Assembly: GCA_042576405.1 (NCBI GenBank)
Contig: JBHPFC010000016.1
Coordinates: forward strand, 10,151-42,150
Direction: 5' to 3'
Source of the DNA: Pseudomonadota bacterium
Lineage (GTDB): Bacteria > Pseudomonadota > Gammaproteobacteria > DSM-19610
DNA: 32,000 nt
Under the pieces are notes generated by a model that ran no database searches, was not told the origin of the DNA, and worked only from the letters and a program-made list of their open reading frames with translations. Below, in pieces: positions 3,486-23,598 of this stretch. Both the position numbers and the translations under genes were made by a program. The first letter of the stretch is position 1; every line of letters starts with the position of its first letter.

Positions 3486-3878
3486 TTACGGGTCGAGTAT
3501 ATCTTCGATCATTGATCGCAACTCTCCGTTGACCCATTCGGCGTCGGGAATGACGAACGTCAGACCGTATTCGTTGTTGGCGAGATAGATGGCCACGAAG
3601 AAGCCGTCATCACGCAGAAAAATGCCCTCCCAATAAATGTTGGTAAGCCTGCAGCCGTCCCAGAGTTCGTCGAGCTCGCGGTCGACGTCTTTCGGCTCGA
3701 TCAGAATGATGTAACCGTAGTCGTCGGGATTGTAGGGATGGCCTTCCCAGGTGTAGCCCTCGATCAATTGCTCGACGAGTTCCTTGACGATGGGGTACGC
3801 AGGGTCGTGTGGAGAGAGCTTTTTGATGTCCGCTGCTGATTGGATTTGGATCATTAGTTTTACCTTTTTTGTGGACAC
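3486..3878 (-). CDS. Hypothetical protein (130 aa from GTG 3878; more likely 122 aa from ATG 3854)
   Basis: Clean acidic globular-looking ORF. The GTG at 3878 sits inside a palindrome/terminator-like element, so ATG 3852-3854 (MIQIQSAADIKK...) is the more plausible start. Confidence 0.65.
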   Translation of the reverse strand: MSTKKVKLMIQIQSAADIKKLSPHDPAYPIVKELVEQLIEGYTWEGHPYNPDDYGYIILIEPKDVDRELDELWDGCRLTNIYWEGIFLRDDGFFVAIYLANNEYGLTFVIPDAEWVNGELRSMIEDILDP

Positions 3879-3912
3879 AAAAAAGCCCGCCGATTCGGGT
3901 GGAAGGGCGGGC
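3879..3912 (-). terminator. Putative rho-independent terminator, read on the minus strand
   Basis: GCCCGCC (3885-3891) and GGCGGGC (3906-3912) form a 7-bp GC stem with a 14-nt loop. On the minus strand the stem is followed by T6 (A-run 3879-3884 on plus). No minus-strand gene lies immediately upstream, so its role is unclear. Confidence 0.4.
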
Positions 3913-4086
3913 GCTAGGGGGTGATGTAAGATTAGTCAGGGATGGTCAGGTTGAGTGATGCTATCTATATGGAAAGTGGTTAGTATTAGACAAGCGCATG
4001 CTGCTTAAATGTATGCTTTAGAAAATAACGAATGCTTAATGATAAGGTCAGGTTGTGTATAAGCAATAAGGACCGGAATAATAGAT

Positions 4087-4728
4087 ATGAGATTTGATTG
4101 GGATAACTGGGGTGCAGGCGGGAAGACTATTTTTATCGCTGCCTGCGTAGCAATACTATCGATGTTCATGAATTGGGTTGATATAGGCATAACCACAAGA
4201 ATTGGAATATCGCAGCAAGCATTTTTACTTTTAGGGTTCTGGATATATCCAGTAGTGATGCTTTTCAACAATAAGCCAATCAATCTAGCTTGGGGGTTAT
4301 TATGTTCGGCGTTGTCATTTGTTGCCACCGCCATATATATTGCCTCTAAAACTATAGAACTTTTTGGGGAAACGACGAATGTTGCCGCAGTGGGCGCTTG
4401 GGTCTTTATTGGTGCTTCTGCTGCACTTGGGGCTGGAGTTGTCAAATACAATTCAGTAAATATTATAAATAAGAGGCTAGTCAGAGGTGGCTTAGAAGTT
4501 ACACAAATAGGTAGAGAAGCACTGGGTGAGAAAGCAGACTTAAAGCTAGGTGATGTCATAGTGAATTACTGCGGTGTCGATGTGAGAAATCATCCAAAAC
4601 TATTAGCTGATGAAATGCTCAAATATAAAAGTGACGAGACAGTACCTATCATCCTATTACGTGACTATGAGAGAGTGATAATTGATGTGCCTGGAGGAGA
4701 TCTTGGTATTCTAGTTCAAGTTATATGA
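4087..4728 (+). CDS. Membrane protein with a C-terminal PDZ-like domain
   Basis: 213 aa with about 4 hydrophobic helices in the N-terminal 120 aa. The C-terminal segment LKLGDVIVNYCGVDVRNHPKLLADEML...VPIILLRDYERVIIDVPGGDLGI matches the PDZ pattern (GD-I-..-nG..v....dl; .v.l.v.R.g). Sits in an AT-rich islet. Confidence 0.65.
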   Translation: MRFDWDNWGAGGKTIFIAACVAILSMFMNWVDIGITTRIGISQQAFLLLGFWIYPVVMLFNNKPINLAWGLLCSALSFVATAIYIASKTIELFGETTNVAAVGAWVFIGASAALGAGVVKYNSVNIINKRLVRGGLEVTQIGREALGEKADLKLGDVIVNYCGVDVRNHPKLLADEMLKYKSDETVPIILLRDYERVIIDVPGGDLGILVQVI

Positions 4729-4896
4729 GCTTTTGACTTCAAGCGGAAAACATTTCGATGTATTGCGCCGACAGTTAGAGGTATATCAACAACGCCACGT
4801 TGCAGGTTACAACGCCCGCATTAACTAATCTGTTGCCTCTATTAAGGCATAACAATGGCTGGTTTTTCCCGAAGAGGGATTCGCCAGCAAACTATT

Positions 4897-5394
4897 TTAT
4901 TTACGCTTTTCGGCCCGATATTTCCACGGTGGTATCGCATGCGGGTCTTCCCATAACCCACGTTTGCCGTCACGGGCTTCTTTCTCGGCTTCAGAATATA
5001 GGATTCGGTCAGTTTCAGACTGCTCTTTCTGATACTTCTTGTAATGCCATGCGTAGCCGGCTGACACCTGCTCCAGGCACGCATCCTCTCCACCGACAAG
5101 TACTTTACCGACGATCCTGCCGTATCGATCTCTCTTGTCATACTCCACAATGACGAAGCGACCGGCGACCGATTCAGCCAGGTGTTCTTTTGATTTCGTC
5201 CCGAATGCCTGCTTGCGCTCCGGTGCATCGATGCCCTGTAAGCGGATCTTGTGCTGAACATTCCCTTCGCTGAGTATGACGATGGTGTCGCCGTCGGTGA
5301 CCCGGACGGTGCGGCCCGTGAGAGTGGCCGCCGACGCGTACGGGACGTGAATCGTGAGAAGCAGAAAGAAAATTATGCGCATTAGGGAACCCAC
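4897..5394 (-). CDS. nuc: Secreted thermonuclease (staphylococcal nuclease/SNase family)
   Basis: Signal peptide MRIIFFLLLTIHVPYASA. SNase blocks VTDGDTI, IRLQGIDAPE, FG..SKE.L, YGRIVG, G.AWHY, EAEKEAR..KRGLW. Probable true start is ATG 5382; the track starts at GTG 5394. Confidence 0.85.
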   Translation of the reverse strand: MGSLMRIIFFLLLTIHVPYASAATLTGRTVRVTDGDTIVILSEGNVQHKIRLQGIDAPERKQAFGTKSKEHLAESVAGRFVIVEYDKRDRYGRIVGKVLVGGEDACLEQVSAGYAWHYKKYQKEQSETDRILYSEAEKEARDGKRGLWEDPHAIPPWKYRAEKRK

Positions 5395-5970
5395 TTACTG
5401 GACTACTTTTCTTCTCGCCATCCCGATCAACCCGATCAGGCCGGTGCCGAAGAGGTAAAGGGCGGAGGGGATGGGGACGGGTTGAGTTTCGATATAGAAA
5501 GATGCAGTCAGAACCGATCGTGGGATGGTTATCCTGTTGGTTGTGATTAGAATCCAGCTTGGACCAAAAATTATGCTGTCAACCGGTAATCCACCATCGA
5601 TGACCTGAGTAACGTCGATAACTTCACCTCCAATACCAGACCATTCAAGATCCTCGAAAAGCCATTCGTGAGCAGTGAAAGTATGGCCAGCCAAGTCAGT
5701 ACGAGACCAGTCCATTAAAATAGTGAAATTTGTGCCGGTGAAGTCGACGAAGCTTTCTCTAGGTTCATCTGTTAGAGGAAGGCTTGGAAACTCAACCACT
5801 GACTCGGAGACTGTTGCAGAGAATGAGACATCCCGGAAGCCCGCTGTACATGGCGTCAAACTCGAAATAGGCGAGACGCAGAAATCTATCCGATCACCAA
5901 CTAAATTTGCTTGTAGAGGTGTTACTACAAACAGCGATGCAGCAATTGTAAGGTGTAGTAATTTAGCCAA
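5395..5970 (-). CDS. PEP-CTERM/VPLPA-CTERM sorting-domain protein (secreted, exosortase-type anchor)
   Basis: N-terminal signal peptide (LTIAASLFVVTPLQA). C-terminus VPIPSALYLFGTGLIGLIGMARRKVVQ is a Pro motif, a TM helix and a basic cluster. TTG start with an AGAGG SD directly after the upstream stop. Confidence 0.75.
   Translation of the reverse strand: MAKLLHLTIAASLFVVTPLQANLVGDRIDFCVSPISSLTPCTAGFRDVSFSATVSESVVEFPSLPLTDEPRESFVDFTGTNFTILMDWSRTDLAGHTFTAHEWLFEDLEWSGIGGEVIDVTQVIDGGLPVDSIIFGPSWILITTNRITIPRSVLTASFYIETQPVPIPSALYLFGTGLIGLIGMARRKVVQ
5411..5454. repeat. Copy A of a 44-nt repeat encoding the CTERM sorting signal
   Basis: cttctcgccatcccgatcaacccgatcaggccggtgccgaagag is 41/44 identical to 5992-6035. 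Confidence 0.9.
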
Positions 5971-5981
5971 CGCGCGCCTCT

Positions 5982-6623
5982 CTATTGTTTCCTTCTCGCC
6001 ATCCCAACCAACCCGATCAGGCCGGAGCCGAAGAGCCAGACTGCGGCGGGTACGGGGACGACAGCTGGCGCGGAGCGTACCAGAGCGCTGCCGGTATATT
6101 GATGCGTAAGATCCCTCCGTAGCGGGCCATGAGTGATGTCTAGGTAATCTCGGTTTGGGTATAGGTGTCTTTCAACATGAAATAATGACGTGTTCATACT
6201 AAGAGTGCCATCGTGCCACCCAGTTATAAGGAAGGTTGCTCCATAATTTGTGTTTTCTGGATTTTCCTCTGCAAACAGATCACCAATAAAAGAAGTTACG
6301 TAATCAAAAACACCAAAATTATCGAAACTCCAACCGTTGTAATCACCGTCTCCCCCAGAAGAATTCAGTAAATTAGATATTTCTGTTAAAGAAGCGTATC
6401 TCCATCCATCGAATTCTTCACCCGGCCCCAATTTATTGCTTACATCGTCATAAGATCTATTCGCAGTAACAGTTAAGTCCAGCCACTCAAGACCGAAGTC
6501 GTCTCTGGTGATGAGATTATCTCCGACCGTTTTCCAATCATTGCTTACTAGTGCTGCATTAGATGACGGCGTGACAAAAATTAAGACCACGGCGTATAGC
6601 GTGCCTAACAAACGTGATTTCAT
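5982..6623 (-). CDS. PEP-CTERM/VPLPA-CTERM sorting-domain protein
   Basis: Signal peptide MKSRLLGTLYAVVLIFVTPSSNA. C-terminus VPVPAAVWLFGSGLIGLVGMARRKQ. GGAGG SD before the ATG. Confidence 0.8.
   Translation of the reverse strand: MKSRLLGTLYAVVLIFVTPSSNAALVSNDWKTVGDNLITRDDFGLEWLDLTVTANRSYDDVSNKLGPGEEFDGWRYASLTEISNLLNSSGGDGDYNGWSFDNFGVFDYVTSFIGDLFAEENPENTNYGATFLITGWHDGTLSMNTSLFHVERHLYPNRDYLDITHGPLRRDLTHQYTGSALVRSAPAVVPVPAAVWLFGSGLIGLVGMARRKQ
5992..6035. repeat. Copy B of the 44-nt repeat encoding the CTERM sorting signal
   Basis: cttctcgccatcccaaccaacccgatcaggccggagccgaagag is 41/44 identical to 5411-5454. Confidence 0.9.
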
Positions 6624-9925: not shown

Positions 9926-10103
9926 GTTGGGTATCCCTTCAATGACAGAGTAGGGTGTCGACCGTCCCTGTGCTAGGATTGCTCATGAAACGGAGGGAGA
10001 TTCATAAAATAATCAATGAGATATCTCGTGTTGGTGTGATTGCCCTGGTCCCGGACGATACGAAACTAGAACTTGGGAGCCACAAGAACACTTGTGATTG
10101 GTG

Positions 10104-12458
10104 ATGGATAGTAAAGAAAAGAAAAAGCTCAGTGAAATAGACATCTGTGATCTGTTCATTACCCCTGCTATCAAGGGTGCCGGTTGGGATCAGCTGACTC
10201 AGATACGTCGTGAGGTCACTTTGACGCCGGGACCAGTTATTGTTCGCGGCAATATGTCCTCGCGCAACAAGAAAAAGAAGAAGTTCGCGGATTACGTTCT
10301 GCAACGGGAGGCGGGTGTGCCCATCGCTATTGTCGAAGCCAAAGACAACAATCACACCGTCAGCCATGGCATGCAGCAGGCCTTGGGATACGCCGAGATC
10401 CTGCATGTGCCCAGCGCCTTCAGCTCCAATGGCGATGCATTTGCTTCGCACAACAAACTGGCGCCCGCTACCGGTGCGGAAACGGAAACCGAGTTTCCGC
10501 TAGAGTCGTTCCCCACGCCGGCCGAGCTCTGGCAGCGCTACAAAACCTACCGCGGCATTGAAGACAGCGAAGAAGAGCTCGTAACCGAGCCTTACCAGGA
10601 CGATGGTTCCGGAAAAGAGCCTCGCTACTACCAGGCAGAGGCGATAAACCGCGTAATCGAAGCCGTTGCTAAAGGCAAAAAGCGCCTGCTGCTGGTTATG
10701 GCCACGGGAACCGGCAAAACCTACACCACATTCCAGATCATCTGGCGCCTGTGGAAGGCAAAAAAAGCCAAGCGAATCCTGTTTCTGGTCGATCGCAACA
10801 TTCTGGCCGACCAAACCCTGGTCAATGACTTCAAGCCCTTCGGCTCCGTCATGACCAAAATCAAGAACCGCAAGATTGACCCGTCCTACGAGATCTACCT
10901 CGGACTCTATCAGGCGCTCACCGGCCCGGACGAAGAAGACAAGATCTTCAAAAATGTCTCGCGGGATTTCTTCGATCTGATTGTGATCGATGAGTGCCAC
11001 CGCGGCAGCGCATCCGAAGATTCAGCCTGGCGGGAAATCCTCGATTACTTTTCCGATGCCATCCAACTGGGCATGACGGCCACGCCCAAAGAAACCGAGT
11101 ACGTTTCCAACATCACCTATTTTGGCGAGCCCGTTTACACCTATACGCTCAAGCAGGGCATCGAAGACGGCTTCCTGGCCCCTTATAAAGTCGTCCGCAT
11201 CGATATTGATAAGGATATTCTGGGCTGGACGCCGCCGCCGGGCATGAAGGACGACCTCGGTCAGGAAATCGAGCAGCGCGAGTACAACCAAAAAGACATG
11301 GACCGCATCCTGGTACTCAACCAGCGCACCAAGCTGGTGGCCAAATGCGTAATGGAGTTGCTCAACGCCACCGAACCCTATGCCAAGACCATTATCTTCT
11401 GTGAAGACATCGATCACGCCGAACGCATGCGCAAAGCCATCGTGAATGCGGCCGGCCAGATCGCTATCGACAACCCCAAATACGTCATGCGTATCACAGG
11501 TGACAGCGTGGAGGGCAAGGCGGAGCTGGATAACTTCATTGATCCGGAAAGCAAGTTCCCGGTCATCGCCACCACCTCAGAGCTGCTTTCTACCGGGGTG
11601 GATGCCAAAACCTGCAAACTCATTGTGCTGGATAAAAACATCAAATCCATGACCACCTTTAAACAGATCATCGGCCGTGGCACCCGTATTGAGGAAGAGC
11701 AAAACAAGTACTACTTCACCGTCATGGATTTCAAAAAGGCGACAGAGCTGTTTAAAGACCCCGATTTCGACGGTGAGCCAGTCGTTATTTATGAGCCCAG
11801 CGGTGGTGATGACCCGGTACCACCTGATCCCGACTATCCGGACGATGATCCCGACGGCGATGGGGTAGAGGACGAGCCGGGCACCTATAAGGTCCAAGTC
11901 AGCGGCGTCGAGGTGAAAATCCTAGCAAAACGCGTGGAATACCTGGGCCCAGATGGCCAGCTCATTACCGAGTCCTATAAAGACTACTCAAGAAAACAAA
12001 TTCGTTCCGAATTCGCCTCCCTCGACGAGTTCCTCAACAAATGGAACAGTGCTAAAAAGAAGGAAGCCATCATTAAAGAGCTGGAAGACCACGGTATCCT
12101 TCTCGCCAGCCTCGCGCTGGAAGTCGGCAAGGAATACGGCGATTTCGACCTCATCTGCCACATCGCCTACGACATGCCGCCGCTCACTCGCAAAGAGCGC
12201 GCCAACAACGTCAAGAAACGCAATTACTTCACCAAATACGGTGAGCAGGCGAGGGCAGTGCTGGAATCCCTGCTCGACAAGTACGCTGACGAAGGCATCA
12301 CCACCATCGAAAGCCCGCGCGTGTTAAAACTCAGGCCCTTCGACAGCATGGGCACGCCCATGGAAATCATCAACAATGCTTTTGGCGGCAAGGAACACTA
12401 CGAAAAGGCCGTCCAGGAGCTGGAACAGGAACTCTACTATCAGGATAAATCGGCATGA
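10104..12458 (+). CDS. hsdR: Type I restriction enzyme R subunit (HsdR)
   Basis: N-terminal nuclease motif ADYVL...IAIVEAKD. Helicase motif I MATGTGKT and motif [10 protein letters not shown], then GMTATP and later SF2 motifs ([18 protein letters not shown]). ATG 10104 is preferred over the track TTG at 10098. Confidence 0.95.
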
Positions 12459-13951
12459 GTAATGTCAGCGGTATCATCAAGTCCATCCAGGACATCATGC
12501 GCAAAGACGTCGGCGTCGACGGCGACGCCCAGCGCATCAGTCAGCTGGTGTGGATGTTTTTCCTCAAGATCTACGACGACCGCGAGGCAGAGCTGGAATT
12601 ACTGGAAGACGATTACCAGTCGCCGCTGCCGGAAAAGCTCCGCTGGCGCAATTGGGCCGCCGATCCGGAGGGTATGACGGGCGACGAACTCAACGAGTTT
12701 GTTAATCTCCAGCTGTTCCCGACGCTGAAGACCGGGCTCAAACTGAAGGGGCCGACAGGTCAGCGCGCCCTGGTCATCCGCAACATCTTCGAAGACGCCT
12801 ACAACTACATGAAGTCCGGCACTCTGATCCGCCAGGTCATCAACAAGATCTGCGAAATCGACTTCAACAACACCGAAGATCGCCACACCTTCGGCAGTAT
12901 TTACGAACAAATCCTCAAGGACCTGCAAAGCGCCGGTAACGCGGGTGAGTTCTATACCCCGCGCGCCGTCACCCAATTCATTGTCAACCGGGTGGCCCCG
13001 CAACTTAAGGAATCCGTGCTCGACCCGGCCTGCGGCACCGGCGGCTTTCTGGCCTGCACCATAGATCACAAGCGCGACACCTACGTGAAGTCCGCCAAGG
13101 ACGAAGAGGCGCTGCAAAAGAGCATTCACGGCGTGGAGAAAAAAGCCCTGCCGCACATGCTCTGCACCACCAACATGATCCTGCACGGCATCGACGTGCC
13201 CGTTCAGATTGAGCACGACAACATGCTCAGCCGCCGCGCCTACAAAGACTATGGCGAAAAAGACCGCGTCAACGTCATCGTCACCAACCCGCCCTTCGGC
13301 GGCATGGAAGAAGACGGCGTGGAGAACCAGTTTCCCGCCACCTACCGCACACGCGAAACAGCCGATCTGTTCATGGCGCTGGTCATCAAGCTGCTCAAAA
13401 ATCGCGGCCGCGCCGCCGTAGTGCTGCCTGACGGCTTCTTATTCGGTGAGGGGATGAAAACCCGCCTCAAGCAGGAGTTGCTGGAAAAGTGCAATCTGCA
13501 CACCATCGTGCGCCTGCCCAATGGCGTGTTTGCGCCTTACACCGGCATCAAAACCAACATCCTGTTCTTCACCAAAAAGCCCGAAAGCGAGCAGCCCGGC
13601 ACCTCACAGGTCTGGTACTACGAGCACCCTTACCCGGAAGGTGTGACCAGCTACAACAAAACCAAGCCCATGCGCTTCGAAGAGTTCGCCACCGAGATCG
13701 AGTGGTGGGGCAATGAGCAAGACGGCTTCAAAGCCCGCAAACAAACCGAGCAGGCGTGGCAGGTCAGCGTCGAAGATATCGTAGCCCGTAACTACAATCT
13801 CGATATCAAGAACCCCCACGTCGGCGAACAGGTCAACCACGATCCGGAACAACTGCTGGCCGACTATCAGCAGCAACAGAGCGAGATTCAAAGCCTGCGT
13901 GACCAGCTGAAAACCATTCTGTCCGACGCGCTAACCGGGGCGAACAAATAA
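12455..13951 (+). CDS. hsdM: Type I R-M N6-adenine DNA methyltransferase subunit (HsdM)
   Basis: HsdM N-terminal domain. AdoMet motif [13 protein letters not shown] and catalytic motif [11 protein letters not shown]. The ATG overlaps the hsdR TGA as ATGA (12455-12458). Confidence 0.95.
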
Positions 13952-15747
13952 TGCCAGCGGCCGAACAACTCATCACGGCTAACCTGGATATCTGGTCATC
14001 GGCCATCAAAACCAAATCTGCCGCAGGCCGTGGCAATAGCAAAAAGCGCGAGCTTTACGGCATAAAAAAACTGCGTGAGCTGATCATGGAGCTGGCTTTT
14101 TCAGGAATGCTTGTGGCAACTGATAAGGTGCAGGTGAACCACGAAGATTTGCTGTCGAAAATGACCGATGAAAAAGCGGATTTTCATAAGCGAAAGGGCG
14201 TTCGTCTTCAGAAGTTTAAGGAGCTGCCAGATATTGACGTGAGCCTAAAATGTCCAGCCAGTTGGGAAACGGTATATTTTGACCAGGTGATCAAATACAT
14301 AACTGATTTTCAAGCTAACGGTAGCTTCGCGACCCTAAAGAAGAATGTAACTTACTATGAATCGCCCAATTATGCCTTGTTGCTGAGGCTTACAGATTTA
14401 AGGCATGGGCTTACGGATAGTAGCAATTACAAGTATACAGATGAGGCAGGTTACAAATTCTTAGCGAAATCATCTATTGACGGTGGTGAATTAGTTATCG
14501 CAAATGTCGGGGCGGGGGTTGGTACTACATTAATGGTCCCCGAGCTCGATATGCCAGCGACGTTGGCTCCAAATATGTTTATGGTTGTTCTGTCCGATCT
14601 TATAAGCAAAGAATACTTTCTATATTTTTCACAGTCGCCAGCATATTGGAAGCACATAGAGCAGGTGAATACCGGAACAGGCCAGCCGAAGATAAATAAA
14701 ACCGAGTATAAGAACTGCAAGATTCCGCTGCCTTCACATTCCGAACAGCTAAGAATCGTCGCCAAAGTCGACGAACTCATGGCCCTCTGCGACCAGCTGG
14801 AACAGCAGCAAGAAACCAGCATCACCGCCCATCAGACCCTGGTGCAAACTCTGCTCGACGCACTGACCACGGCCAGCGAGCGCGACGGCTTCACCGCCGC
14901 TTGGGCAAGAATCGCCGACCACTTCGACGCCCTCTTCACCACCGAGTGGAGCATCGACCAGCTCAAAAAAACCGTCCTCCAGCTCGCCGTCATGGGCAAA
15001 ATTATCCCGCAGGATCCCAACGACGAACCAGCCTGCGAGCTTCTTAAGAAAATTGCCGCCGAGAAGGCCCAGCTGGTGAAGGTAGGCAAGATCAAGAAAC
15101 AAAAAGCGTTACCGCGGATTGAAGATGATGAAAAGCCTTTTGCGCTGCCGGATGGTTGGTGCTACACGAGGCTTGATGATCTTTGCGCTTGGATCACTTC
15201 CGGTTCTACACCGCCAAAGTCAGAATTTCAGGATCATGGGGGCGTGCCTTATCTCAAGGTATACAATATTCGCGAACAAGCGATAGATTTCGACTACAAG
15301 CCGCAGTTCGTTAATTCTGCGTGTCACGAAGGTAAGTTAAAGAGGTCGATTCTTTATCCCGGTGACGTAGTAATGAATATCGTTGGCCCGCCATTAGGGA
15401 AGATCGCTATTATTCCAGATACCCACCCAGAGTGGAATTGTAATCAAGCAATTGCCTTTTTTCGTCCCATCGATATAAGGCTTAATTCCTATATTTATAC
15501 GTATTTAACTTCCCATCTGTTTCTTGGTTACATCGAGCTTATTGGCACGGCGGGCCAAGACAACATATCAGTAACAAAAAGCAGAACCATAGTCTTTCCC
15601 ATGCCGCCGTTCGAAGAGCAGTGCCGAATCGTTGCTAAAGTTAATGAACTCCTGGCCCTTTGCGACACGCTGAAGGTAGGTCTTAACAACGCCCAAGCCA
15701 CCCAATTGCAATTGGCCGATTCCATGACCGAACAAGCTGTTGCGTGA
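13951..15747 (+). CDS. hsdS: Type I R-M specificity subunit (HsdS) with two target-recognition domains
   Basis: Two variable AT-richer TRDs are each followed by a conserved helix: EQLRIVAKVDELMALCDQLE (14743-14802) and EQCRIVAKVNELLALCDTLK (15616-15675). The ATG overlaps the hsdM TAA as TAATG (13949-13953). Confidence 0.95.
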   Translation: MPAAEQLITANLDIWSSAIKTKSAAGRGNSKKRELYGIKKLRELIMELAFSGMLVATDKVQVNHEDLLSKMTDEKADFHKRKGVRLQKFKELPDIDVSLKCPASWETVYFDQVIKYITDFQANGSFATLKKNVTYYESPNYALLLRLTDLRHGLTDSSNYKYTDEAGYKFLAKSSIDGGELVIANVGAGVGTTLMVPELDMPATLAPNMFMVVLSDLISKEYFLYFSQSPAYWKHIEQVNTGTGQPKINKTEYKNCKIPLPSHSEQLRIVAKVDELMALCDQLEQQQETSITAHQTLVQTLLDALTTASERDGFTAAWARIADHFDALFTTEWSIDQLKKTVLQLAVMGKIIPQDPNDEPACELLKKIAAEKAQLVKVGKIKKQKALPRIEDDEKPFALPDGWCYTRLDDLCAWITSGSTPPKSEFQDHGGVPYLKVYNIREQAIDFDYKPQFVNSACHEGKLKRSILYPGDVVMNIVGPPLGKIAIIPDTHPEWNCNQAIAFFRPIDIRLNSYIYTYLTSHLFLGYIELIGTAGQDNISVTKSRTIVFPMPPFEEQCRIVAKVNELLALCDTLKVGLNNAQATQLQLADSMTEQAVA

Positions 15748-16736
15748 TGACAATCAAAATTGCGCCAATACCGGATTTGCCTGATGAGCTTCTCGCTGCG
15801 GCTCAGGCAGGAAGGCTTGTGCCATTCGTGGGGGCTGGTGTTTCACGGATTGCCGGTTGCCCGGGGTGGGATGCCCTTGCAAATGCCTCACTTCAGCAAA
15901 TGGTTGATGCTGGAAGGTTATCGTATGCCGAGTTAGAGCAATGTCAGTCAATTACAGCGCCAAGGATAAAGCTGTCGATGGCGGAGTTGATCGCGAGGAA
16001 GCATGGGTTATCAATAGACTACAAAAAAGTCCTGGAACGACCAGGCTGGCAAATGAATTCCAAAGGCTTACAGTGCTATGGAGCGCTAGGGCAACTAGGG
16101 CAGCGATTTGTCACAACCAATTATGACGGATGGCTGGACTATGAGTATCCAACTGTTCCCGGCGCCCCTGTGCCGACAGGCCCGTCGAGTACGCCAAGCT
16201 ACGCTACTAGGCTGGCATATTATGATCGTAGCGACTTTACTGCTGCGCGATTTCGAGAACCCAACACCGTCATCCATCTCCATGGTTCGTTGCAGAACCC
16301 AGGCAGCATGATTCTGACTATGCGTGACTACATCTCTCACTACGCTAATGATCGGGGCGGCGGTGGAGATGAGGAGAACCAGGTGTTGACGTTTCTCGAG
16401 CACCTATTTGAAGACAAGACCGTCCTTTTTGTCGGATATGGTCTCGAGGATTTGGATATCCTCGAACACGTCGTCCAGAAGGCCCGTGGCATGGCGCGCG
16501 GGAGGAGCTTAGTGCGTCACTATATGCTGCAGCCCTATTTTTCCTATGAGCAGGGCCTTGCGGAGAACATGGAGCGCTATTTCCGTGAAGAGTGTGGTAT
16601 CGCATTGTTGCCATACCAGCGTGACAGTAAGAATTACGACCAACTCATTGATGTCTTGACAGATTACGCGCGGCGAATTCCAGCAGCAGATCCGATGGTG
16701 CTGCAGGACCTGCGCGAGATGGAAGGAATGATCTGA
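15747..16736 (+). CDS. SIR2-family (SIR2_2-like) protein; predicted NAD+-consuming effector
   Basis: GAGVS (15831-15845), TTNYD (16113-16127), HLHGS (16275-16289) and VLFVGYGLEDLD give the Rossmann/Asn/His signature of defence-type sirtuin domains. The ATG 15747 overlaps the hsdS TGA as TGATG. Confidence 0.85.
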   Translation: MTIKIAPIPDLPDELLAAAQAGRLVPFVGAGVSRIAGCPGWDALANASLQQMVDAGRLSYAELEQCQSITAPRIKLSMAELIARKHGLSIDYKKVLERPGWQMNSKGLQCYGALGQLGQRFVTTNYDGWLDYEYPTVPGAPVPTGPSSTPSYATRLAYYDRSDFTAARFREPNTVIHLHGSLQNPGSMILTMRDYISHYANDRGGGGDEENQVLTFLEHLFEDKTVLFVGYGLEDLDILEHVVQKARGMARGRSLVRHYMLQPYFSYEQGLAENMERYFREECGIALLPYQRDSKNYDQLIDVLTDYARRIPAADPMVLQDLREMEGMI

Positions 16737-19576
16737 TGGTTGTGCTCAACTCAAAAGAGCAATCTCTGATTGAATACATGGGGAGGAGCGATGAGCATCT
16801 GCGCAAGGGTGTCAGTCTGATCGTCGATCGGGGAGATCCGGGTCGATATTTCGAGGCAGTTCAGGCCGCAGGCTTGTTAGATTCGGGCAAAAACCCGATG
16901 CCTGTGGCGACAGAGGATGGCAAGTACTGGCAAATACCATACTGGCCGATGCTTGATTTTCTCGTTGCTTGCACCAAACAAGCGGAACAAGGTGACGATG
17001 GCGAACTGGCTAATCAGGTCTTGCAGATCATTCGGTCTGTCAGTCAATCGGTCGAGAACAATGGTGGCGAGCCCAACAACTATCACACATTTCGAGTCTT
17101 TGCGGACATATTGGGATTAGTGCCGACTACCGCAGTAACAATGGCTGATGTAGATCTTATTCCCATTTGGCTAGGTGGAAGATTCGACCGCGGTGGCGTC
17201 TGTAACTCTCTCGATAAAGGCGCAGTGAAGCGGTTTCTCGATAGTCACAGTGCTGAAGACTGGCGGAAAGCACTTCGTATAATGGAGCATTGCACAGCGA
17301 CTTTATGGATAGATAAGGAAGGGTTCCACGGTGGCGTGCGTCGAGAGCCGGAGTCGGTAGTTGATGATCACTGGCTTAAGGAGATGATCAAGCATCACGC
17401 CGCAGTGCTCGGGCAGAAGCTAGGGCAGGAGGCTGCGGAAGTATTCCGAGATTGGGTAAGGGAAGTCTATCGAGAAGATGAGAGGGATCTTCCGAGCTAC
17501 ATCTTTCGACCAGCCATCGAAGAGAATGAGCAGAACTACGACTGGAATGGTGTTGATAATCGTTCCATAGAGGCGCTGCGTGACGCGCTCGATGGATGGA
17601 TAGCTGCAAACGGTGGCGATGTCACGGAGTATGTTAAGGGGCTGCTAGAAGATGAGCTAGAAATACTGAGGCGAACTGCGCTCTATTTGATAAATACTCA
17701 TTGGGATAGATTGGATGAAGTGCTGTCGCGCAGCATGGGTGTGGCCCTTTTCGATCAAGATATGCATCACGAACTTTATGATCTACTGGATGCAAGGTTC
17801 ATGTCGTTTTCAAACCCGTTAAAAGAAGCAACGGTCAATGCGATAGAGTCGATCCCACTCTCTGCAACAGACGATAATCCCGAATTATTGTTAGCGCGAA
17901 TTAGGCGGCGATGGTTATCTGCTATTGTTGGCAAGGGTTCTGAGCGAGCAGACCAGCTGTACGCGACCCTAATGCAGAATTACGATCTCGGTCGCCTGTC
18001 AAAGCATCCGAATTTTCTTTCGTATAGCGAGTCTAGGTCGGGCCCTGGCCCCTCGCCATATTCACCACAAGAACTCGCCGAGCTGAATCGAGGCGGCACC
18101 TTGATTGCAACTTTGGAAGCGTTTGAGCCTGGTGATACATGGGAAGGGCCTACAAAAAGAGCATTGGTTGATTCCTTAGAAGCAGCGGTGGGTCTCGATC
18201 CGGCTTCATTTATAAAGGCCTTACCCAGCTTCTTAGCTACGGAGCGTTGCTATCAGTACGGCGTCATTAACGGCTTCAAGGGGTTGTGGGATCGAGCAGA
18301 CAAAGACGATATGTCGTCTGGGTCTGGATGGGACTCTGCATGGCCAGCACTTTTTGACTTTTTTTCTTCACTTATTTCGGGCGATGCGTTTTGGGATGAA
18401 GAGGCTCCCGAGGATCGGGATATGACACCGACCCGTGACTGGATTCCCGGGCTGATTGCGGATTTTTTGCGTGCAGGTACTCGAGATGACGAAAAGGCAT
18501 ACTCGCCAGATTTGTTGCCGGCCGCACTACCAATAATTGATCGTTTATTGAATAAAGGGCAGGCAGTAGATGCGCCTAGCGATAATGCGATGACGCAAGC
18601 AATAAATTCCCAGAAAGGCAAAGCTGTGGAAGCTCTTTATGGTTATGCGCTAAGGTCAGCGAGGGTTGCGGACAATACCGATGGGAATCACGATGATGCT
18701 TGGGCGGCGGTTGAGCCAATCTACAACAGGGAGTTGGAGCTTTGCCATGGAGGCAATTTCGAGTTCTCGACATTGCTAGGTTCATACCTAGCTAATCTGG
18801 AATACTTGAACATTGCCTGGGTTGAGAATCATTTCCGGGATATCTTTTCGGAGGTGAATCCTGAGAACTTCGTGTGCGCACTAGGCGGCTTGGCTTATGG
18901 CCAGGCAACTCGCAGATCATTCGCTCTGTTACGCGACAATAACGTTTTCAATGCGGCCATTGGTCTGGATCTGCCCGGAAACCACACACGCGAAAAACTC
19001 GTGCAGCGTATCGCTTTGGGCTATTTGTGGGGCGACGAGCCGCTGGATTCAACGTGCTTCAATTTGATTTTTGACAATCACATTGATGGGGATCTTCAGA
19101 CGATTGCGACATTTTTCTGGAGCATAAGTAACCAGGACGTTGCTGATGAGCAAATTGAGAGAATCATGGCGTTCTGGACGCGTTGCGTGGAATGGGCGGC
19201 GGCTCAAACACCGGCACCGGAGGCATTGCTGGCGAAACTGAGCTTGTTGTCTTGCTATCTCAATGAAATCTCCGACGATAATCTGCAGCTTATGTTGGCG
19301 TGCGTTCCGTATGTTAACAACACCAATTATTCTTGGGAGTTGACCAAGACGTTGGAGTCCCTTGCGACCGAGAGCCCAGCAAACGTCGTTCAGGTTCTTG
19401 ATAAGTATTTGGAAAACTATCGCCCAAATTATGATTATCAGGAGTTGCTTAATAGTCTGATAAGGAAGCTGGCCCAAGGGGGGCAGAGGCTGGCGGCGTT
19501 GCGATTTACTGAAGACTTGCGTCAGCTTAGGGGTATGGACGAACTGTATCGAGAACTGATAGCTGATGACGATTGA
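16736..19576 (+). CDS. 946-aa protein of unknown function, probably all-alpha repeat; partner of the SIR2 gene
   Basis: Uninterrupted 2.8-kb ORF. Its ATG overlaps the SIR2 TGA as TGATG (16734-16738). Rich in W/D/E/L. I see no Walker A, no HD/PD-ExK/TIR/protease motif and no obvious TM helix. Confidence 0.85.
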   Translation: MVVLNSKEQSLIEYMGRSDEHLRKGVSLIVDRGDPGRYFEAVQAAGLLDSGKNPMPVATEDGKYWQIPYWPMLDFLVACTKQAEQGDDGELANQVLQIIRSVSQSVENNGGEPNNYHTFRVFADILGLVPTTAVTMADVDLIPIWLGGRFDRGGVCNSLDKGAVKRFLDSHSAEDWRKALRIMEHCTATLWIDKEGFHGGVRREPESVVDDHWLKEMIKHHAAVLGQKLGQEAAEVFRDWVREVYREDERDLPSYIFRPAIEENEQNYDWNGVDNRSIEALRDALDGWIAANGGDVTEYVKGLLEDELEILRRTALYLINTHWDRLDEVLSRSMGVALFDQDMHHELYDLLDARFMSFSNPLKEATVNAIESIPLSATDDNPELLLARIRRRWLSAIVGKGSERADQLYATLMQNYDLGRLSKHPNFLSYSESRSGPGPSPYSPQELAELNRGGTLIATLEAFEPGDTWEGPTKRALVDSLEAAVGLDPASFIKALPSFLATERCYQYGVINGFKGLWDRADKDDMSSGSGWDSAWPALFDFFSSLISGDAFWDEEAPEDRDMTPTRDWIPGLIADFLRAGTRDDEKAYSPDLLPAALPIIDRLLNKGQAVDAPSDNAMTQAINSQKGKAVEALYGYALRSARVADNTDGNHDDAWAAVEPIYNRELELCHGGNFEFSTLLGSYLANLEYLNIAWVENHFRDIFSEVNPENFVCALGGLAYGQATRRSFALLRDNNVFNAAIGLDLPGNHTREKLVQRIALGYLWGDEPLDSTCFNLIFDNHIDGDLQTIATFFWSISNQDVADEQIERIMAFWTRCVEWAAAQTPAPEALLAKLSLLSCYLNEISDDNLQLMLACVPYVNNTNYSWELTKTLESLATESPANVVQVLDKYLENYRPNYDYQELLNSLIRKLAQGGQRLAALRFTEDLRQLRGMDELYRELIADDD

Positions 19577-19743: not shown

Positions 19744-19820
<77 letters not shown>

Positions 19821-19885: not shown

Positions 19886-21736
19886 TCAGGAATCGATTTC
19901 CAGGAAACTGCGCAGCTGTTCCGAGCGGCTCGGATGACGCAGTTTACGCAGTGCCTTGGCTTCAATCTGACGAATACGCTCACGTGTAACGTCGAACTGT
20001 TTGCCGACTTCTTCCAGCGTGTGGTCCGTATTCATATCGATACCAAAGCGCATGCGCAATACCTTGGCTTCGCGAGGTGTGAGGCCACAGAGTACGCCTT
20101 GAGTAGCCTCTTTCAGGCCAGCGCCGGAAGCAGAATCAACCGGTGAGTCAATGCTGGTGTCCTCGATGAAATCGCCCAGGTGTGAGTCTTCGTCATCACC
20201 GATCGGGGTTTCCATGGAGATGGGTTCCTTGGCGATCTTGAGCACCTTGCGAACCTTGTCTTCCGGCATGTCCATGCGTTCGGCAAGTTCTTCAGGCAGC
20301 GGTTCGCGCCCCATTTCCTGCAGCATTTGCCGGGAGATGCGGTTCAGCTTGTTGATGGTCTCAATCATATGCACCGGAATACGGATGGTGCGTGCCTGGT
20401 CGGCAATTGAACGTGTAATCGCCTGACGGATCCACCAGGTGGCGTAAGTCGAGAACTTGTAACCACGGCGGTATTCAAACTTGTCCACCGCCTTCATCAG
20501 GCCGATATTGCCTTCCTGGATCAGGTCGAGGAACTGCAGGCCACGGTTGGTGTATTTCTTGGCAATGGATATAACCAGGCGCAGGTTGGCTTCCACCATT
20601 TCTTTCTTGGCACGGCGTGCCTTGGCCTCGCCAATGGACATGCGGCGATTGATGTCCTTGATCTGGCTGATGCTCAGGCTGGTATCTTTCTGGATATTTA
20701 CCAGCTTGTTCTGGGCGCGCAGTATTTCTTCCTTGTGCTGTTCCAGCACTGGCGAGTACTTGTGCCCGCCCTTGATCTGGGTGTCCAGCCAGTTAAGGTC
20801 AGTTTCATTATCCGGGAAGGAGGTGATGAAGTCTTTTCTCGGCATCAGCGCGTCGTGTACGCAGATGCCCATAATCACACGCTCGTGGGTGCGGATACGC
20901 GCCACAGTTTTACGCAGACTATCGGTCAGGGTTTCCACCATGCGTGGTGCCAGTTTCAGGCATTTCAGGTGTTCGACCATCTGGACAACAGCTTTCTCAA
21001 TACGAGATTCGTTGCGGGTCTTGGCATTGAGTGCGGTAATCAGCTTGTCATGCAACTTACGCAGTTCAGCGAAGAATTCGCGTGTTTCTTCCGGATCAGG
21101 GCCGGTGTCTACAGGTGCGGCCTCTTCTTCATCGTCGTCTTTATCTTTGTCTTTGTCAGCATCATTGCCTTTGCTGGCGTCGTTCGCGGCAGCAGGTGAC
21201 GGAATCGGCTCGTCAACAGCATTCGGATCAATGAAGCCGGTAAACAAATCGGTCAGGCGTGATTCACCTGCCTCGACCTTGGCGTACTCATCAAGCAGTC
21301 GTTTTGATGTTGCCGGGTAGCTGGAAAGCGCCTGGTAGACCTGGCCCAGCCCATCTTCTATGCGCTTGGCAATCTCAATTTCGCCTTCTCGGGTGAGCAG
21401 CTCAACCGTGCCCATTTCCCGCATGTACATACGTACCGGGTCGGTGGTGCGACCAAACTCACTGTCGACCGTTGCCAGGGCTGCGGCAGCTTCTTCGGCA
21501 GCGTCTTCGTCAGCTGGAGAAGATTCGTTGGACATGATCAGCGTGTCGGCGTCAGGTGCGGTTTCGTGCACCTGGATACCCATGTCGTTGATCATGCCGA
21601 TAATGTCTTCGATCTGCTCCGGATCGACGATGTCATCCGGCAGATGGTCATTAACCTCGGCATAGGTAAGGAAGCCCTGCTCTTTACCTTTGGCGATCAG
21701 CAGTTTGAGTTGCGATTGTTGGTTCTGGTTCATCAC
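19886..21736 (-). CDS. rpoD: RNA polymerase primary sigma factor sigma-70 (RpoD)
   Basis: 616 aa with region 1.1, an acidic spacer, region 2 ([52 protein letters not shown]), and regions 3 and 4 ([27 protein letters not shown]). Confidence 0.97.
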
Positions 21737-21831: not shown

Positions 21832-23598
21832 TCAATCGGCAGGTTCCTGTGCCGAGTGCTGAGTCACAAGCAGTTGTTTAAGCTCGGTTTTCTCTGCATC
21901 ACTTAGTGTACTGTCACGGCTCTTCAAAAGTAGCTGTGCAGTACGCTGATGGTTCCGTTGTTCCAACAGACGTTGGACAGCGCCAGATAATTCCTGTTCA
22001 TAGCCATCTGCCGGTACCATCAGCGGCGTGCTCGCGAGCCGGGCCAGATGGGTTTCTTCCGGCCGACCGCGCCAGTGTTCCAGTAGTCCGCCAGTAGATA
22101 GATGCGGGTTACTCGCCGTTAATTCAAGTAACTCGACCAATAGTTCAACACCGGGCAGGTCCAGATCTGCGAAGCCGTAGGGCGGCGCAATGAGTGCGCC
22201 CAGGGCCGGTTGCTCCAGCAGCAATCTGATGGCGCTGCGCACCGGGCTGCGACTGAGATCCCGGCGTGGCTGGTGGTCTGTTGGTGGGTCGGGTTCGGTG
22301 GCCTCGCCGAGCACACGTCGTTGCAGCTGTGGAAGCTTCAGACCGCTGTATTCCGATAATTGCTCCAGCATCAGGTCACGAAATACAGAGTCCGGCAATG
22401 TCGCTAACAAGGGGCGGGCAAGTTCCACCAGGCGGGCTCGTCCATCCACACTGGTAGTATCGACTTGCCGGCCCAGTGATTCATAAAAAAACTTTGAAAG
22501 TGGGACTGATTCGACAGTTTTTTGCCGAAATGTTTCTGCGCCGATACGGCGCACCAGGGAATCCGGGTCTTCACCTTCAGGCAGGAACAGGAAGCGTGCC
22601 TCGCGGCCATCACGCAGCACCGGCAGTGCATTCTCCAGTGCCCGCCAGGCAGCGCGGCGTCCGGCGGCATCGCCGTCGAAGCAGAACACGACTTCGCTGA
22701 CGGTACGGTAAAGACGTTCCAGGTGCTCGGGCGTTGTGGCAGTGCCCAGCGTAGCAACCGCGTTGGTGAGGCCAAACTGTGCCAGTGCAACAACGTCCAT
22801 GTAGCCTTCGACCACCAGCAGGCGCTCCAGTTTCTGGTTGGCCTTGCGGGCTTCGAACAGGCCATAGAGTTCCCGCCCCTTGTGGAACACGGGACTCTCC
22901 GGGCTGTTCATGTACTTGGGTTTTTCGTCACCCAGTACCCGGCCGCCAAAGCCGATACAGCGGCCGCGGCGGTCGCGAATGGGGAACATGACGCGGTCGC
23001 GAAAACGGTCATAGCGGCCGCCATCGTCTTTTTCGACCAGCAGGCCGAGTTCAGTGGCGAGGCGCTGTGATTCGGGGTCGCCAAACTGTTTCAGCAGTGA
23101 ATCCCAGCCAGGTGGCGCGTACCCCAGGCCAAATGTCTGGGCGATTTCGCCACTGAGTCCCCGGTCCTTGAGATATGCCACTGCCTTGTCTGCCTGTGCG
23201 TGCTGGCGCAGTTGGGCGCGGTAAAATTGATCGACGCGTTCCAGCAGGGCGTAGTGATCGGTTCGCTGCTGTTCAGCCTGCGGCGACTGGCTGCCAGATT
23301 CTCGCGGAACTTCCATGCCAACTGAGCGGGCCAGTTCCTCGATAGCTTCCGGAAATGCCAGGTTGTCGTATTCCATCAGAAAACTAATGGCGCTACCGTG
23401 GGCTCCACAGCCGAAGCAATGGTAGAACTGCTTGCCGGGGCTGACCGTAAATGACGGTGTTTTTTCGTTATGGAAGGGGCAGCAGGCCTGATATTCGCGG
23501 CCGGTTTTTTTCAGCTGCAGGCGCGCATCAATGAGATCAACAATATCGACCCGGTTAAGGAGTTCGTCGATAAAGGATTGCGGAATACGGCCGGCCAT
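21832..23598 (-). CDS. dnaG: DNA primase (DnaG)
   Basis: CHC2 zinc finger CCPFHNEKTPSFTVSPGKQFYHCFGCGAHG, a Toprim domain (VVEGYMDV...DGDAAG) and a DnaB-interaction C-terminal domain. Confidence 0.97.
   Translation of the reverse strand: MAGRIPQSFIDELLNRVDIVDLIDARLQLKKTGREYQACCPFHNEKTPSFTVSPGKQFYHCFGCGAHGSAISFLMEYDNLAFPEAIEELARSVGMEVPRESGSQSPQAEQQRTDHYALLERVDQFYRAQLRQHAQADKAVAYLKDRGLSGEIAQTFGLGYAPPGWDSLLKQFGDPESQRLATELGLLVEKDDGGRYDRFRDRVMFPIRDRRGRCIGFGGRVLGDEKPKYMNSPESPVFHKGRELYGLFEARKANQKLERLLVVEGYMDVVALAQFGLTNAVATLGTATTPEHLERLYRTVSEVVFCFDGDAAGRRAAWRALENALPVLRDGREARFLFLPEGEDPDSLVRRIGAETFRQKTVESVPLSKFFYESLGRQVDTTSVDGRARLVELARPLLATLPDSVFRDLMLEQLSEYSGLKLPQLQRRVLGEATEPDPPTDHQPRRDLSRSPVRSAIRLLLEQPALGALIAPPYGFADLDLPGVELLVELLELTASNPHLSTGGLLEHWRGRPEETHLARLASTPLMVPADGYEQELSGAVQRLLEQRNHQRTAQLLLKSRDSTLSDAEKTELKQLLVTQHSAQEPAD

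Follow-up and report, generated by a model that had tools for sequence, protein, structure and literature searches.

DSR1 is a defence-associated sirtuin consisting of a single SIR2-domain protein, which protects B. subtilis from phi29 with a transient depletion of NAD+ and no collapse of the culture. Single-polypeptide Dsr1 proteins defend when expressed alone, without a restriction-modification (R-M) system. It has recently been reported that Dsr1 and Avs7 have homologous sensors, that sensors of the Dsr1/Avs7 type carry diverse effectors, and that EcDsr1 becomes toxic in response to one trigger only, the ZL19 major capsid protein, this toxicity being abolished by disrupting the NADase domain (Nature 2026, PMC13581612; preprint PMC12803255). 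The authors of that work, which lists 9,097 sensors, take the capsid trigger to hold more generally for Avs7-type sensors in different defence systems. DSR2, a sirtuin joined to a solenoid, is reported to sense the tail tube protein, and the related SIR2 NADases ThsA, Avs5, KomC and DSR2 itself are switched on by conformational change or oligomerisation. In this work we analyzed two adjacent genes, one for a SIR2 protein and one for a partner of 946 amino acids (aa) encoded by the open reading frame (ORF) ORF946, which follow the type I R-M genes hsdRMS in a 32,000-nucleotide (nt) stretch of a gammaproteobacterial assembly (GCA_042576405.1, contig JBHPFC010000016.1 of 45,650 bp, positions 10,151 to 42,150). 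This whole stretch is referred to as the window. The two genes are likely to encode a DSR1-like defence-associated sirtuin divided into two subunits, a SIR2 NADase effector and an alpha-helical repeat sensor.

The two proteins and their relation to Dsr1

The smaller protein matches the Pfam family SIR2_2 (E = 2.3e-20) and carries the NAD-binding loop GAGVS at residues 30-34 (nt 15831-15845), the motif TTNYD with the catalytic N126 (codon 16119-16121), the motif HLHGS with the catalytic H180 (codon 16281-16283), and VLFVGYGLED at residues 227-236. Residues G30, G32, S34, T124, T125, N126, H180, G181 and G231 do not vary among the 68 homologous SIR2 partners compared. When the AlphaFold2 (AF2) model of the protein, with a predicted local distance difference test score (pLDDT) of 83.7 and a predicted template modelling score (pTM) of 0.85, was compared with the Protein Data Bank (PDB) by Foldseek, the best matches were defence NADases, namely KomC, ThsA, human FAM118B, Avs5 and DSR2; the matches to ThsA span the SIR2 domain only. 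The Pfam score, the invariant residues and the nearest folds show that the motifs are not chance matches. A search for homologues returned 645 proteins at E ≤ 1e-10, and the best 120 of these are essentially all of ~330 aa, with no protein of fused length among them. Sequence and modelled fold together identify the 330-aa protein, a SIR2 NADase, as the putative effector subunit of a DSR1-like system encoded in two parts.

A Pfam scan of ORF946 returned no match at E ≤ 0.1, and this includes any domain of unknown function co-occurring with SIR2_2, which had been suggested in a first-pass annotation of the window made from the letters alone. The remark in that annotation that the protein has no recognisable motifs was thus fair; its description as an orphan is ruled out by thousands of homologues and by a strong match to a PADLOC Dsr1 profile. 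Searching an ORF946 profile against 1.84 billion cluster representatives identified 4892 relatives at E ≤ 1e-3 and 1759 at E ≤ 1e-30, and 41 full-length homologues are 927-952 aa long at 36-76% identity, none of them fused. The AF2 model consists almost wholly of alpha-helical repeats arranged as an alpha-solenoid; its pLDDT of 87.4 beside a pTM of 0.59 suggests that parts of the model are not reliably placed relative to each other, as would be compatible with two lobes but proves nothing in this respect.

The relation between the two proteins is given by a single PADLOC hidden Markov model for Dsr1, PDLC04166 (1227 positions), which both match in order: aa 1-327 of the SIR2 protein correspond to positions 1-298 (E = 3.1e-54) and aa 29-924 of ORF946 to positions 330-1205 (E = 2.8e-96). 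As the two proteins occupy adjacent parts of one Dsr1 profile, they represent two halves of a DSR1-like protein. The fused relatives P0146, P0180 and P0182 cover this profile from end to end (767 bits for P0180), and BLASTP aligned residues 4-330 of the SIR2 protein with residues 1-294 of P0180 (27% identity, 6e-27) and residues 46-921 of ORF946 with residues 334-1203 (28% identity, 8e-111), so that the break between the two genes corresponds to the inter-domain linker of the fused protein. The 946-aa protein is accordingly predicted, on sequence homology to the C-terminal part (~900 residues) of DSR1-like proteins made as one chain, to be the sensor subunit. Of the alternatives proposed in the first-pass annotation, the split DSR-like system was the right one; a new SIR2 pairing or undescribed defence module is unsupported, as the pair maps onto the named system Dsr1, an outcome which the annotation itself had listed as refuting, the sensor family is large, and the methods of the Dsr1/Avs7 sensor paper already handled "split proteins" (PMC13581612). 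Beyond that one methods sentence, our literature search for an explicit two-gene or split DSR1 found none.

Within the best 150 representatives of the ORF946 relatives, ~126 of 133 full-length proteins (~95%) are standalone and ~912-965 aa long. Three are SIR2 fusions of 1227-1250 aa in which the match to ORF946 begins at ~residue 320, three of ~1090-1100 aa (P0127, P0143 and P0168) have an N-terminal TIR instead of SIR2, and one of 1052 aa has an unexplained N-terminal extension of ~100 residues; the remainder are fragments. A genomic example of the TIR-sensor arrangement was found in locus L077 (9464-12763). The replacement of SIR2 by TIR in some relatives marks ORF946 as a sensor module. 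With respect to the NCBIfam Dsr1 equivalog NF041818, which has a cut-off of 1400 bits, the SIR2 protein (31.5 bits) and ORF946 (12.6 bits) score far under the threshold, and the fused relatives of the PDLC04166 type reach just 40-79 bits. These matches are weak yet collinear, and 14 of 27 members of the sensor family individually match NF041818 (best E 4e-11); we are therefore dealing with a diverged DSR1-like subfamily and not with the canonical equivalog.

Conservation of the two-gene layout

A scan of one genome per species identified 196 relatives of ORF946, of which the best 80 loci were taken. These derive from Proteobacteria, Nitrospirota, Acidobacteriota, Desulfobacterota, Planctomycetota, Bacteroidota and other phyla, and the distribution of the pair over the phyla is patchy. 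All loci which keep both genes are split (70/70, 0 fused), with a separate SIR2 ORF of ~300-340 aa immediately upstream of the sensor, and the split is at the same inter-domain position down to ~25% identity. The two ORFs overlap mostly by 8 nt (~32 loci), 4 nt (19 loci) or 1 nt (8 loci), the second ORF lying in one or the other of two frames relative to the first, and ATG is the usual start codon of the sensor. The occurrence of three overlap types in two frames excludes a recent frameshift, a sequencing error or a single programmed frameshift; this junction pattern is what translational coupling looks like. The same layout was met in three loci seeded on SIR2 homologues, where a gene of 940-946 aa without Pfam match overlaps the SIR2 stop by 8 nt. 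In the window the junction reads TGATG, the SIR2 stop and the ATG of ORF946 having one base in common, and a Shine-Dalgarno-like GGAAGGA is located ~8 nt before the ATG, a geometry which likewise fits translational coupling.

Pairwise identities of the SIR2 proteins and of the sensors correlate across 62 loci (Mantel r = 0.88, reached by 0 of 999 permutations), and SIR2 is more conserved than the sensor in 89% of locus pairs. Co-divergence together with a slower SIR2 fits a fixed catalytic effector with a faster-evolving sensor. The two-gene split is old and conserved, and not a frameshift. Some variation was observed around the pair and among its most distant relatives: a second SIR2_2 protein of 1221 aa, a length like that of fused DSR proteins, is encoded 2 kb downstream of the split pair in locus L087 (11975-12993, minus strand). 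Two very distant sensor relatives were also observed, one with an upstream ORF of 275 aa (L081, 8677-9504) and one (L083, 9353-13794) with an N-terminal extension of ~200 aa and a downstream ORF of 328 aa, none of these additional regions having a Pfam match; they may be further alternative effectors.

The operon, its surroundings and the type I R-M linkage

On the ORF map the pair forms the end of a series of five co-oriented genes, hsdR-hsdM-hsdS-SIR2-ORF946, in which neighbours overlap by 1-4 nt (Table 1), and all three upstream products, the HsdR helicase-nuclease, the HsdM N6-methylase and HsdS with two target recognition domains, were matched by both Pfam and PADLOC. The stop of hsdS overlaps the start of the SIR2 gene in the sequence GTGATG, giving a product of 330 aa if the GTG at 15744 is the start and of 329 aa if it is the ATG at 15747; the NCBI annotation has the 329-aa form. 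A scan for promoters and terminators between the five genes yielded no signal above chance, and hsdRMS is probably co-transcribed with the SIR2-ORF946 pair. Re-reading of the sequence confirmed the ORFs, motifs and overlapping stop/start junctions of the first-pass annotation, whose account of the operon anatomy and of the SIR2 catalytic residues was correct.

Table 1. Coordinates of the five-gene operon and of other features in the window.
Feature	Coordinates	Strand	Evidence or remark
Glycine-rich membrane-like protein, 448 aa	235..1581	+	Weak PADLOC match PDC-M09A, 1e-7, ~50 residues
Antirestrict protein, 141 aa	1825..2250	-	Pfam Antirestrict (PF03230), 2e-26; ArdB/KlcA-like
Staphylococcal-nuclease homologue	4897..5394	-	Adjoins the PEP-CTERM-like pair
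PEP-CTERM-like secreted protein	5395..5970	-	Paralogue of the following gene
PEP-CTERM-like secreted protein	5982..6623	-	Paralogue of the preceding gene
ORF of 411 aa	6968..8203	-	No Pfam or PADLOC match
hsdR	10098..12458	+	Pfam ResIII and EcoEI_R_C; PADLOC REase_I, 1133 bits
hsdM	12455..13951	+	Pfam N6_Mtase 1.4e-77 and HsdM_N; PADLOC MTase_I
hsdS	13951..15747	+	Pfam Methylase_S; PADLOC Specificity_I 1.2e-174; TGA stop 15745-15747
SIR2 gene	15744..16736	+	Pfam SIR2_2 2.3e-20; PADLOC Dsr1; TGA stop 16734-16736
SIR2/ORF946 junction (translational coupling)	16721..16738	+	Sequence read directly
ORF946 (putative sensor gene)	16736..19576	+	PADLOC Dsr1; ATG start 16736-16738
tRNA, anticodon CAT (Met, or Ile2 if lysidine-modified)	19744..19820	-	ARAGORN
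rpoD	19886..21736	-	Beyond the tRNA
dnaG	21832..23598	-	Beyond rpoD

The tRNA gene between the ORF946 stop and rpoD/dnaG marks the right-hand edge of a variable region. The region to the left of the tRNA may be a tRNA-associated island, but a search of the window for an att-like repeat of the 3' end of the tRNA was negative. A megablast search against a plasmid collection matched only brief conserved segments at the tRNA and the rpoD end, the defence genes being unmatched. The region upstream of the operon looks like a variable or mobile island and contains an antirestriction-family gene, a staphylococcal-type nuclease, PEP-CTERM-like proteins and several ORFs without family match. The presence of an Antirestrict gene in one region with type I R-M genes is characteristic of mobile elements. 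The 411-aa ORF just upstream of hsdR has a C-terminal RSKLVHG which resembles the HEPN motif Rx4-6H, and on this sequence resemblance it may be another defence gene. The two adjacent secreted proteins end in a PEP-CTERM-like anchor (…LFGSGLIGLVGMARRK), and their genes have a 73-nt repeat of 84% identity in common. The PADLOC match of the 448-aa protein is probably compositional.

To describe the genomic company of the sensor all flanking ORFs of 84 loci were clustered without prior assumptions. SIR2 is the sole systematic neighbour (74/84 loci), followed by HsdM-like genes in 8 loci and HsdR-like genes in 5, with everything else in 4 loci or fewer, and type I R-M genes are present within 10 kb in ~9 of the 84 loci (~10%). 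The order R-M-S-SIR2-sensor is found in the window, in its closest relative L084, and in L049, where it is followed by a HEPN gene (HEPN_LA2681, 12715-14340). In L058 (5146-17636) the pair is embedded between hsdS and hsdR in the order M-S-SIR2-sensor-Schlafen/AlbA_2-R, the AlbA_2 gene also being Fic-like_C, and in L077 the start of the TIR-sensor fusion overlaps the hsdS stop by 4 nt; L005, L011, L017 and L053 are looser variants. The hsd-linked cases are co-oriented with the pair and often tightly coupled. Several accessory defence-like genes share the R-M loci L058 and L049. Other pairs adjoin genes of the Eco57I/MmeI type (type IIG) or SNF2-methylase genes, GmrSD, integrases, transposases, HEPN genes or housekeeping genes.

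The hsd-linked loci are located at no fewer than seven (at least 7) separate positions of the sensor tree, beside sisters without hsd genes, and the Hsd proteins of linked loci other than L084 are merely 23-48% identical to those of the window; the association has therefore arisen or been lost repeatedly, involving various type I systems. Comparison of the window with L084 gives an identity of 91% for HsdR, 93% for HsdM, 88% for SIR2, 76% for the sensor and 48% for HsdS (L084 hsdS, 3681-5519). This pattern shows that the five genes were inherited together and that the two specificity-bearing proteins, HsdS and the sensor, diverge fastest, the divergence of HsdS being the usual swapping of target recognition domains. 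Accessory defence genes within type I R-M clusters have been documented, as for TgvAB in Vibrio, and PrrC is embedded almost exclusively in type I R-M systems (Payne et al., 2024). R-M loci commonly have accessory defence genes embedded in them or docked to them, and the place of the pair behind hsdRMS fits this pattern; it is likely to bring co-expression and layered defence and does not indicate functional dependence on the R-M complex. The hsdRMS genes are context and not a required part of the DSR1-like system.

Proposed mechanism, rival explanations and comparison with known systems

By analogy with the work on Dsr1, DSR2 and Avs7, the SIR2 protein and the sensor would form a complex in which SIR2 is held inactive, the sensor binding SIR2 through the regions which are contiguous in the fused forms. 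A phage protein would then bind the helical sensor, the major capsid protein being the best candidate from what is known of E. coli Dsr1, and a change in the conformation or oligomeric state of the sensor would switch on NAD+ hydrolysis. The loss of NAD+ would block phage replication, starving the phage and possibly the cell, while co-transcription with hsdRMS would add this response to restriction as a layered defence. Several points weigh against this interpretation of the pair. Complex formation, NADase activity and phage protection of the split members are all assumed by analogy, and kinship to the characterised Dsr1 is remote, as judged from the NF041818 scores, so that the trigger could differ from the capsid protein. 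Foldseek comparison of the modelled ORF946 with the PDB returned only generic HEAT/ARM solenoids (e.g., importins) with a template modelling score of at most 0.35 and no Avs protein, no DSR2 chain was present among the top 50 matches, and neither ORF946 by itself nor the family profile found a match when searched against PDB sequences. Finally, tight coupling to hsdS recurs in unrelated lineages (window and L084, L049, L058, and L077 with TIR) and is closer than plain co-location in an island, and some functional interplay may be involved.

The alternative to which we would assign a small but real probability accepts a split DSR1-like system and places the difference in the cue, which could be another conserved phage protein or a nucleic-acid signal; otherwise the sensor could act mainly as an antitoxin-like inhibitor which phage activity removes or degrades. 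The remote relation of the subfamily to characterised Dsr1 speaks for this, as does the sensor, which evolves faster than SIR2 both between the window and L084 and across locus pairs, and whose specificities may therefore differ between clades; DSR2 is reported to sense the tail tube protein instead. Against it, experiments on Dsr1-type sensors have yielded a single trigger, the capsid protein, which the authors extended to Avs7-type sensors (PMC13581612). It is improbable that the DSR1-like module is functionally integrated with type I R-M in the hsdS-coupled lineages (window, L084, L049, L058 and L077). If it were, the module may serve as a back-up against phages which escape or inhibit restriction, or the hsd operon may set its stoichiometry or expression, and the repeated independent capture behind hsdS would reflect selection for interplay and not mere co-location. 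The proposal, also made in the first-pass annotation, that the pair guards the R-M system by monitoring HsdRMS and firing upon inhibition by an anti-restriction protein such as Ocr, ArdA or Stp, as PrrC does in the prr locus, would explain the packing of the five genes without promoter or terminator signals between them, the identical operon in L084, the SIR2 or TIR-sensor genes directly after hsdS in the distant L049, L058 and L077, and the rank of HsdM-like genes as the commonest neighbour after SIR2. However, type I genes are near the pair in just one locus in ten or so, compared to the near-exclusive embedding of PrrC, the linked members are scattered on the tree beside close sisters that have no hsd genes, their Hsd proteins belong to different type I systems, and other pairs stand beside type IIG, SNF2-methylase or housekeeping genes. 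Moreover, ORF946 has no ABC-ATPase or other PrrC-like domain, and single-chain Dsr1 defends alone, with EcDsr1 triggered directly by a phage capsid protein. Given the low linkage and the autonomy of Dsr1 the guard idea is very unlikely for the hsd-linked lineages, and as a property of the family it is unsupported.

Two other explanations concern the nature of the genes themselves. That the SIR2 protein is a housekeeping protein deacylase with a regulatory partner and unrelated to phage defence would agree with the label "NAD-dependent protein deacetylase" which some databases apply to SIR2-family proteins, and we regard it as scarcely credible: the domain is SIR2_2 and not the classical sirtuin family, the structures closest to it are without exception defence NADases, both proteins are recognised by PADLOC as Dsr1, the loci are found among R-M systems, GmrSD, HEPN genes, integrases and transposases, TIR takes the place of SIR2 in some relatives, and the phylum distribution is patchy. 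That the ORFs are a pseudogene, i.e., a single-chain DSR1 broken by a frameshift or by a sequencing or assembly error, could be suspected given that the window comes from a metagenome-assembled genome and that fused relatives of 1227-1250 aa exist. This has practically no chance of being correct, as it is ruled out by the 70 loci split at one inter-domain position across many phyla and by the mixed junction types, which no single frameshift explains; each sensor also has a proper start codon, and in the window neither ORF is truncated and no conserved residue is missing.

With the pair read as a split DSR1-like sirtuin, what appeared to be a SIR2 gene with an orphan partner becomes a recognisable system, and a large and widespread DSR1-like branch is seen to be encoded as two genes. 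Current understanding is not overturned, since the pair is a known system in two-gene form, from a large existing family. For annotation it means that single-gene Dsr1 models with full-length cut-offs, such as NF041818, miss the split form, and that Pfam has no model for the sensor. The naturally separate sensor and effector, together with the SIR2-to-TIR swaps, are suited to the study of how a sensor of the Dsr1/Avs7 type controls an NADase in trans, and the repeated docking behind hsdS adds to the known cases of type I R-M loci with embedded defence cargo.

Of the known systems DSR1 (Gao et al. 2020; Garb et al.; PDLC04166; NF041818) is the one which the pair resembles in having a SIR2 NADase followed by a long alpha-helical sensor, with collinear matches to PDLC04166 and with NF041818 detected by half of the sensor family; by analogy, NAD+ depletion on infection in response to a phage-protein trigger would be the expected common function. 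DSR1 is one polypeptide, whereas the pair consists of two translationally coupled genes and, being far below the NF041818 cut-off, represents a diverged subfamily. The Avs7 superfamily has a bilobed, sharply bent, TPR-like helical-repeat sensor with interchangeable N-terminal effectors, to which ORF946 would be related by transitivity through Dsr1; the SIR2-to-TIR swap among ORF946 relatives mirrors the effector exchange described for Avs7 (PMC13581612), but the pair has no STAND NTPase and its effector is a separate gene. DSR2 likewise combines a SIR2 NADase with a large alpha-solenoid sensor, which binds a phage structural protein, and the structural search with the window SIR2 also returned SIR2 domains of DSR2; unlike the pair it is a single chain, and neither window protein has a PADLOC Dsr2 match, nor do the top 50 Foldseek matches of ORF946 include the MID/CTD sensor of DSR2. 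A SIR2 NADase beside a separate sensing or regulatory partner is also found in SIR2-HerA, SIR2-APAZ/pAgo (SPARSA), Thoeris ThsA/ThsB and KomBC, and KomC and ThsA are the closest solved folds to the window SIR2. In the pair, however, the partner is a DSR1-type helical repeat protein, and by PADLOC and Pfam no ThsB TIR, HerA ATPase, pAgo or KomB is present by the SIR2 gene, whose neighbours are hsdRMS and ORF946. Lastly, the pair resembles embedded genes such as PrrC, TgvAB and the PADLOC embedded candidates in being co-oriented with hsd genes, in this case with coupling to hsdS, and differs from PrrC in that its embedding is facultative (~10% of loci) while that of PrrC is near-obligate.

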